41,969 nucleotides of DNA, taken from sequence record NC_049951.1; one strand, given 5' to 3'. Numbering within the stretch: the stretch's first letter is position 1; every line of letters begins with the position of its first letter. The notes below the pieces were generated by a model, which did no database searches, was not told where the DNA came from, and was given only the letters and a program-made list of their open reading frames with translations. Below, in pieces: positions 14,128-14,876 of this stretch. Source of the DNA: Enterobacteria phage O276. The translations under genes and the position numbers were made by a program.

Positions 14128-14132
14128 ATCCC

Positions 14133-14876
14133 ATGACACAGACAGAATCAGCGATTCTGGCGCACGCCCGGCGATGTGCGCCAGCGGAGTCGTGCGGCTT
14201 CGTGGTAAGCACGCCGGAGGGGGAAAGATATTTCCCCTGCGTGAATATCTCCGGTGAGCCGGAGGCGTATTTCCGTATGTCGCCGGAAGACTGGCTGCAG
14301 GCAGAAATGCAGGGTGAGATTGTGGCGCTGGTCCACAGCCACCCCGGTGGTCTGCCCTGGCTGAGTGAGGCCGACCGGCGGCTGCAGGTGCAGAGTGATT
14401 TGCCGTGGTGGCTGGTCTGCCGGGGGACGATTCATAAGTTCCGCTGTGTGCCGCATCTCACCGGGCGGCGCTTTGAGCACGGTGTGACGGACTGTTACAC
14501 ACTGTTCCGGGATGCTTATCATCTGGCGGGGATTGAGATGCCGGACTTTCATCGTGAGGATGACTGGTGGCGTAACGGCCAGAATCTCTATCTGGATAAT
14601 CTGGAGGCGACGGGGCTGTATCAGGTGCCGTTGTCAGCGGCACAGCCGGGCGATGTGCTGCTGTGCTGTTTTGGTTCATCAGTGCCGAATCACGCCGCAA
14701 TTTACTGCGGCGACGGCGAGCTGCTGCACCATATTCCTGAACAACTGAGCAAACGAGAGAGGTACACCGACAAATGGCAGCGACGCACACACTCCCTCTG
14801 GCGTCACCGGGCATGGCGCGCATCTGCCTTTACGGGGATTTACAACGATTTGGTCGCCGCATCGACCTTCGTGTGA
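14133..14876 (+). CDS. K: tail tip assembly protein K (MPN/JAMM + NlpC/P60); classical lambda start is the internal ATG at 14277
   Basis: 247-aa ORF; JAMM-like E...HSHPGGLPWLSEAD motif; frame is open from the ATG 6 nt after L. Confidence 0.85.
   Translation: MTQTESAILAHARRCAPAESCGFVVSTPEGERYFPCVNISGEPEAYFRMSPEDWLQAEMQGEIVALVHSHPGGLPWLSEADRRLQVQSDLPWWLVCRGTIHKFRCVPHLTGRRFEHGVTDCYTLFRDAYHLAGIEMPDFHREDDWWRNGQNLYLDNLEATGLYQVPLSAAQPGDVLLCCFGSSVPNHAAIYCGDGELLHHIPEQLSKRERYTDKWQRRTHSLWRHRAWRASAFTGIYNDLVAASTFV

Follow-up and report, generated by a model that had tools for sequence, protein, structure and literature searches.

The DNA analyzed here, a stretch of 41,969 nucleotides from Enterobacteria phage O276 (sequence record NC_049951.1; hereafter the window), carries genes L, K, I and J in that order, with J at 15506..18904. 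An earlier note on this stretch had claimed that the reading frame of K is open from an ATG 48 codons upstream of the classical lambda start, and that it encodes 247 residues rather than 199. The list of open reading frames confirms this, with a product that begins MTQTESAILAHARRCAPAESCGFVVSTPEGERYF... and a frame that has no internal stop (Table 1).

Table 1. Coordinates of features in and around gene K, as positions in the window. A2 is an alignment of nine sequences, to 29% identity; A3 is an alignment of relatives 67-97% identical (33 rows, lambda counted).
Feature	Position	Strand	Remarks
Gene L (tail tip protein, 232 aa)	13429..14127	+	directly upstream of K; same coordinates in J02459; TAA stop 14125..14127
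Full-length gene K	14133..14876	+	247 codons and TGA stop; calculated mass 28.3 kDa; N-terminal JAMM/MPN+ (Prok-JAB) and C-terminal NlpC/P60 domains predicted
48-codon N-terminal extension	14133..14276	+	absent from the classical 199-aa K; helix 3-15, strands 19-27 and 30-35; includes P17, E19, G22 and N38
Glu19 (GAG), predicted catalytic glutamate of the JAMM motif	14187..14189	+	not encoded in the 199-aa form; invariant in both A2 and A3
GGAGG, Shine-Dalgarno-like	14261..14265	+	11 nt upstream of the classical start; within codons 43-45 (Pro-Glu-Ala); annotated as ribosome binding site in OM418625
Extra G relative to J02459/NC_001416	14267	+	inserted after reference base 14266; from alignment and base-by-base comparison
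Classical K start ATG (reference 14276), internal Met49	14277..14279	+	J02459 annotation
JAMM zinc-binding motif H-S-H-x7-S-x2-D (His68-Ser69-His70...Ser78-x-x-Asp81)	14334..14375	+	all five residues invariant in A2
Predicted NlpC/P60 catalytic residues Cys121, His187, His199	14493..14495, 14691..14693, 14727..14729	+	invariant in A2; from Pfam and the Foldseek match to MepS
Gene I (223 aa as in J02459)	14774..15445 (J02459: 14773..15444)	+	reported gpK substrate; its first 103 nt also belong, in another frame, to the 3′ end of K

Base-by-base comparison with the lambda reference (J02459/NC_001416) shows no differences over window positions 1..14266, and over 1..19778 the sole difference is the extra G at 14267, where the reference reads GGAGGC-TAT and the window GGAGGCGTAT. 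Otherwise base-identical sequence extends from the G for 14,266 nt on the upstream side and 5,511 nt on the downstream side, and the next differences, at 19779/19780, lie beside a deletion junction. Read in frame from the upstream ATG, the reference reaches a stop after 76 codons; in the window, the G joins the 48 upstream codons in frame to the classical K. The earlier note had anticipated a 1-bp difference within 14128..14276 from an offset of +1 in K, I, J and lom and of zero through L, and both the difference and the offset are as it supposed. K ends at 14876 in the window and at 14875 in J02459, J lies at 15506..18904 versus 15505..18903, and lom at 18966..19586 versus 18965..19585, the shift being due to the G. 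Two circumstances that the note itself had raised against its reading – an identical reference sequence, or an in-frame stop that had been missed – were not encountered. Forty-eight codons without a stop are nothing unusual in themselves: in random sequence such a run is calculated to occur with a frequency of (61/64)^48, or ~0.10, and the case for the longer gene therefore rests on homology and conservation.

The remainder of the window departs from wild-type lambda in several places, and the non-wild-type stretches 19775..20747 and 28863..32059 were examined as part of a whole-window comparison. Reference segments 19788-22950 (the stf/tfa region) and 23924-25908 are deleted, and in place of the immunity region (reference 34034-38592) there is a 3.2-kb segment with 99.9% identity to phage HK022, on which lie an IS903 transposase, nun, cI, cro and cII. 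On this pattern, the window looks like a lambda/HK022 immunity hybrid that also has b-region deletions. At 19779..19780 it has AA where the reference has GG, a few bases before the left deletion junction, and the BLAST segments flanking this deletion overlap by 14 nt (window 19775-19788), which points to a short imperfect repeat as the site where the deletion occurred. The left arm hardly departs from the reference, and the right arm (32059..41969, reference 38592-48502) has 60 mismatches and no gaps (99.4% identity); part of it may come from another lambdoid parent.

Two peptidase domains are predicted in the 247-aa product. Residues 1 to ~105 have the features of a JAMM/MPN+ zinc isopeptidase domain, for which the canonical motif is E-x(n)-H-S/T-H-x7-S-x2-D (PMC300881), with Glu19, zinc ligands His68, His70 and Asp81, and Ser78 as its predicted active-site residues. 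The Pfam family Prok-JAB (PF14464) matches residues 3-104 of the 247-aa form over profile positions 3-112 of 114 with 52.3 bits, against a gathering cut-off of 25, whereas in the 199-aa form the match covers only profile positions 63-112 and, at 23.3 bits, falls under that cut-off. The interpretation of the 48 extra residues as the N-terminal part of the JAMM/MPN+ domain, including the predicted catalytic Glu19, is supported by this lengthening of the match and by the position of the glutamate within the extension, in agreement with what the earlier note had proposed. The NCBIfam desampylase model also matches residues 3-103 (E = 4.7e-07); the score of 29.8 is far under the equivalog cut-off of 130, so gpK is not a desampylase orthologue.

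Residues ~110 to 225 are predicted to form an NlpC/P60 papain-like cysteine peptidase domain. Pfam NLPC_P60 (PF00877; MEROPS C40) matches residues 111-224 over the full profile (1-105 of 105) with 49.2 bits and a cut-off of 23, and does so equally well in the 247-aa and 199-aa forms. Cys121, His187 and His199 would, by the pattern usual in this family, be the catalytic triad. The papain-like fold and a Cys-His-His triad are common to this domain and the D,L-endopeptidases of the MepS/Spr type, but no signal peptide or lipobox was noted in gpK, which, unlike those enzymes, is a cytoplasmic assembly factor; mass spectrometry of virions did not find gpK (PMC10721106).

Structure prediction for the 247-aa product, which the earlier note had suggested as a check, gave an AlphaFold2 model with a mean pLDDT of 83 (33-sequence alignment). 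Most of the extension is modeled confidently: the mean per 10-residue block is 94, 91, 94 and 86 for residues 1-40, falling to 64 in residues 41-50, and residues 1-35 contribute one helix and two strands to the domain core. Foldseek searches against the PDB returned the JAMM deubiquitinases PfJAMM1, Rpn11, CSN5 and AMSH, together with NlpC/P60 enzymes including MepS. PfJAMM1 (5ld9) was matched with E = 6.8e-05 and a TM-score of 0.59 normalized to the target, and 5ld9, 4ocm and 9egl were matched at a probability of ~1.0. The only PDB sequence match found by phmmer is a solved JAB-like protein, 2kks ('Uncharacterized protein'), which aligns with K residues 7-105. With the JAMM/MPN+ isopeptidases – PfJAMM1, the haloarchaeal desampylase, Rpn11, CSN5 and AMSH – gpK has in common the fold and the E...H-S-H-x7-S-x2-D motif, and also the reported nature of its substrate, a ubiquitin-like (Ubl) domain followed by a Gly-rich end. 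It differs from them in that its JAMM domain is fused to an NlpC/P60 domain, and in that it reportedly acts during virus assembly on a linear fusion of Ubl and structural domains (gpI) rather than on an isopeptide conjugate.

The extension is conserved among both close and distant relatives. A set of 80 IMG/VR loci and lambda records gave 68 distinct K alleles, 95.6-100% identical in DNA, and the 247-codon frame is intact in 68/68, being broken only in J02459/NC_001416. Variable sites at codon positions 1, 2 and 3 number 6, 2 and 17 in codons 1-48 and 20, 18 and 65 in the rest of the gene; the third-position bias is alike in the two parts, as would be expected under purifying selection. At greater distances, a tblastn search of 50,697 phage records with the 247 aa as query matched 1758, with 1718 of these covering at least 80% of the query. 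The match begins at query residue 1-8 in 37 of 40 sampled rows, which include phages of Mannheimia, Stenotrophomonas, Ralstonia, Pseudomonas, Vibrio and Klebsiella. In six annotated phages with K homologues at 29-51% identity, the proteins are 236-248 aa long, and the genes directly follow the L homologue (6/6), starting 1-4 nt past its end. Residues P17, E19, G22 and N38 of the extension are invariant in alignment A2, as are H68, S69, H70, S78, D81, C121, H187, H199 and H200 outside it.

Database proteins are likewise predominantly of the longer form. Among the matches listed (120 database clusters) the commonest length is 247 aa, and single clusters of this length contain up to 12,883 member sequences, the named ones being called 'phage tail protein' or 'C40 family peptidase'; the window K is 94-98% identical to large clusters. 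These E. coli prophage proteins and the HK97 gp19-like protein of HK544 have the same two-domain architecture, a length of 236-248 aa, the L-K-I-J order, a start abutting the L stop and the invariant catalytic residues; nothing of substance differs, and the window K is an ordinary member of this group. The alignment with the reference and with other lambdoid K genes advocated in the earlier note thus reveals both the G difference and homologues that are also full length. Within PHROGs, phrog_30 matches K residues 1-247 (E = 1.3e-163). Three partial families match as well: phrog_7305 (76 positions, function unknown), which aligns end to end with residues 1-76 (window 14133..14360); phrog_2635 (135 positions), with residues 1-132; and phrog_2552 (142 positions), with residues 108-246. 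Split or truncated K genes are thus grouped there as families of their own.

The start of the longer gene lies 5 nt after the L stop, and the upstream sequence, aaactttcgcagtaaatccc, contains no recognizable Shine-Dalgarno. Between the L stop and the K ATG, spacer length differs by 1 nt among alleles (TAAATCCCATG, TAATCCCATG, TGAATCCCATG) while the ATG is kept, indicating that L and K are separate open reading frames and that the ATG at 14133 is the conserved start. At the L/K junction of loci L008-L087 (window 14125..14135), the spacer is 5 nt in most and 4 nt in 14 of 85, and the L stop is TGA rather than TAA in two near-identical prophage loci. Because the tight junction is also seen in distant phages, we infer that ribosomes probably reach this ATG through coupling to the translation of L or by re-initiating after it. 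A product that fuses L to K, or joins them by a programmed frameshift, was considered and rejected, since the spacer varies by 1 nt among alleles and both frames are intact; a few database proteins do fuse PF05100 (minor tail protein L) to K, as singletons or very small clusters. A start at GTG 14241, which gives the 211-aa K annotated in KT232076, was rejected also, as it would remove Glu19 and conservation reaches residues 1-8.

On initiation signals alone, the classical ATG at 14277 looks better than that at 14133, and the GGAGG placed 11 nt before it explains the original 199-aa annotation. This raises the question of whether the longer frame is a matter of annotation only, with K translated from ATG 14277 by way of the GGAGG and the 48 upstream codons untranslated or a relic. 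The Shine-Dalgarno-to-ATG geometry is good at 14277 and lacking at 14133, and in GenBank the 199-aa CDS persists in most of the records with the G (DE3, HK630 and lambda imm21 among them), but these annotations are copied from the reference ('similar to lambdap19'). The coding-type variation of the extension, its four residues (the catalytic Glu included) that are invariant across homologues of 29-51% identity, the block means of 86-94 in pLDDT for residues 1-40 and the start of divergent homologues right after L all speak against untranslated DNA. In addition, the active deubiquitinase-like domain reported for gpK (PMC12908700) could not be a JAMM domain from which the catalytic Glu, the first helix and two strands are missing. 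We therefore regard translation from the classical ATG alone as extremely improbable.

Alternatively, the gene could give two nested products in the same frame, as lambda C/Nu3 does, the 247-aa protein and an internally initiated 199-aa protein consisting of the NlpC/P60 domain and a JAMM remnant. A GGAGG followed 11 nt later by an ATG does occur inside the gene, and among the 68 close alleles GAGG is kept in 68, GGAGG in 67 and the ATG in 66; these alleles are at least 95.6% identical, however, and such conservation among them is uninformative. Position 49 is more telling. The residue there is Met in 16 of the 33 rows of A3 and Ile in 14, with Leu in 2 and Val in 1, so that it departs from Met in 17/33 even in relatives 67-97% identical, and it is I or L in 5/6 phage homologues at 29-51% identity, the local alignment of the sixth, from Klebsiella GH-K3, being too poor to call. 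Because Met49 is not conserved, a conserved internal start is unlikely, and the poor retention of this residue also weighs against exclusive use of the classical ATG. There is thus only a slight chance that K encodes nested products, the second of them perhaps a minor one specific to lambda, and it is just as doubtful that 14261..14279 acts as a second start yielding a 28-kDa two-peptidase gpK and a 23-kDa form without the JAMM catalytic Glu; if it did, the short gpK might modulate or cap the activity of the long form.

With the longer frame favored as the true gene, the G-less reference has itself to be accounted for. Across 13900..14500, the window has 100% identity with 18 phage records, which include lambda stocks and hybrids sequenced independently; among them are lambda imm21, lambda imm434, lambda h434 imm21, DE3, HK629, HK630, the two 'phage Lambda' records KT232076 and PV340536, and LC730321. 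The G is missing only from J02459, its RefSeq copy NC_001416, OR974322 and OR474059. The last of these, an engineered-strain record marked UNVERIFIED, shows 100.000% identity with J02459 across 24,513 nt. OR974322 departs from J02459 at six positions, and 58 of its 70 features have the CDS coordinates of that record; both look like reference-guided or reference-derived records. LC730321, by contrast with these, is an independently sequenced lambda of 48,503 bp that differs from J02459 at 15 positions. It has the additional G in K and an extra C at reference 20833 in stf, and is without reference base G138. A remark in the HK630 record states that the stf of laboratory lambda is missing a C relative to Ur-lambda, and the presence in LC730321 of both the G and the stf C suggests that the G in K is the older state. 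An explicit statement of the +G correction was not found in the literature searched. A supplier's sequence note for lambda cI857 Sam7 presumably lists '14266 (+G)'.

Could the two sequences represent a real polymorphism, in which the reference stock lacked the G, a 199-aa gpK with NlpC/P60 only sufficed for tail formation, and the window carries another natural allele? Two records besides the reference are without the G, and Iyer et al. mention some prophage versions of TAPK that have the NlpC/P60 domain only (PMC1779556), but the two records look reference-derived, and the same authors propose that such NlpC-only forms have degenerated (PMC1779556). The G is moreover present in all independently derived lambda lineages examined, and a lone indel in a G+C-rich run amid more than 19 kb of identical sequence resembles a typical gel-reading error. 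A true polymorphism has, in our estimation, hardly any likelihood, although if the Sanger-era stock truly lacked the G, the JAMM domain would be dispensable in the laboratory. Most probably, the 1982 reference (J02459/NC_001416) is without the G because a G+C-rich stretch was misread in sequencing; at most, that one stock was defective. The missing base would have split the open reading frame, and annotators would then have taken the next ATG with a good Shine-Dalgarno. Altogether, it is very likely that the true lambda K is the 247-codon open reading frame and that the 199-aa K is a product of the G missing after reference 14266.

The two-domain protein fits into an existing account of gpK and its neighbor, in which the sequence, conservation and fold come from our analysis and the activity from the literature. 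The JAB plus NlpC/P60 architecture of TAPK and its link to the Ubl protein TAPI (gpI) were described by Iyer, Burroughs and Aravind in 2006 (PMC1779556), with the prediction that the JAB domain of TAPK cleaves after the C-terminal glycine of the TAPI Ubl domain (PMC1779556). A conference report in 2025 stated that gpK cleaves the Ubl domain from gpI (PMC12908700), and gpK is required for tail assembly (PMC12617516). In the window, Pfam Lambda_tail_I, a ubiquitin-like domain, matches residues 14-97 of the 223-aa gpI; the Ubl domain closes with a Gly-Gly (...AGAKSGG). A downstream tail assembly or I-like gene is present in 5/6 of the divergent phages, and none is seen in Vibrio H8 within the stretch fetched.

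Judged by its sequence, full-length gpK would be a two-peptidase tail-tip assembly protein. According to the published reports, its JAMM domain would remove the N-terminal Ubl domain of gpI during stepwise assembly of the tail tip, a cleavage that would enforce the stepwise order (PMC12908700), and gpK itself would not be retained in the virion. Without the residues that the extension encodes, the JAMM domain could not function. As a separate matter, the start of gene I is annotated inconsistently: J02459 has the 223-aa product from the ATG at window 14774, whereas KT232076 and PV340536 have 190 aa from GTG 14873, which overlaps the K stop and cuts ~20 residues off the ubiquitin-like domain. 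Met14 of gene I (ATG 14813, MARICLYGDL...) is a third candidate.

None of this is new in itself. The architecture was published in 2006, 247 aa is the database norm, PV340536 already annotates a 744-nt CDS (247 aa), and the cleavage of gpI was reported in 2025; the finding is a correction of the reference and of an annotation fault, with no new biology. The reference gpK (AAA96551/NP_040598, 199 aa, 'C40 family peptidase') is the same gene between L and I, identical over residues 49-247, with a CDS that starts 48 codons late, so that Glu19 is lost and the JAMM domain is left without its first helix and two strands. A structural-bioinformatics review in 2020 analyzed the 199-residue K and saw only a peptidase domain, at residues 52-182, and the deubiquitinase-like domain was missed because this shorter protein was used. 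Read mapping, guide design and annotation transfer for lambda still universally rely on J02459/NC_001416, and the 199-aa K is still being copied into new records whose DNA has the G, so that the correction is useful. Expressing, mutating or modeling gpK from the reference CDS means working with a protein that is without its catalytic glutamate and part of its fold.
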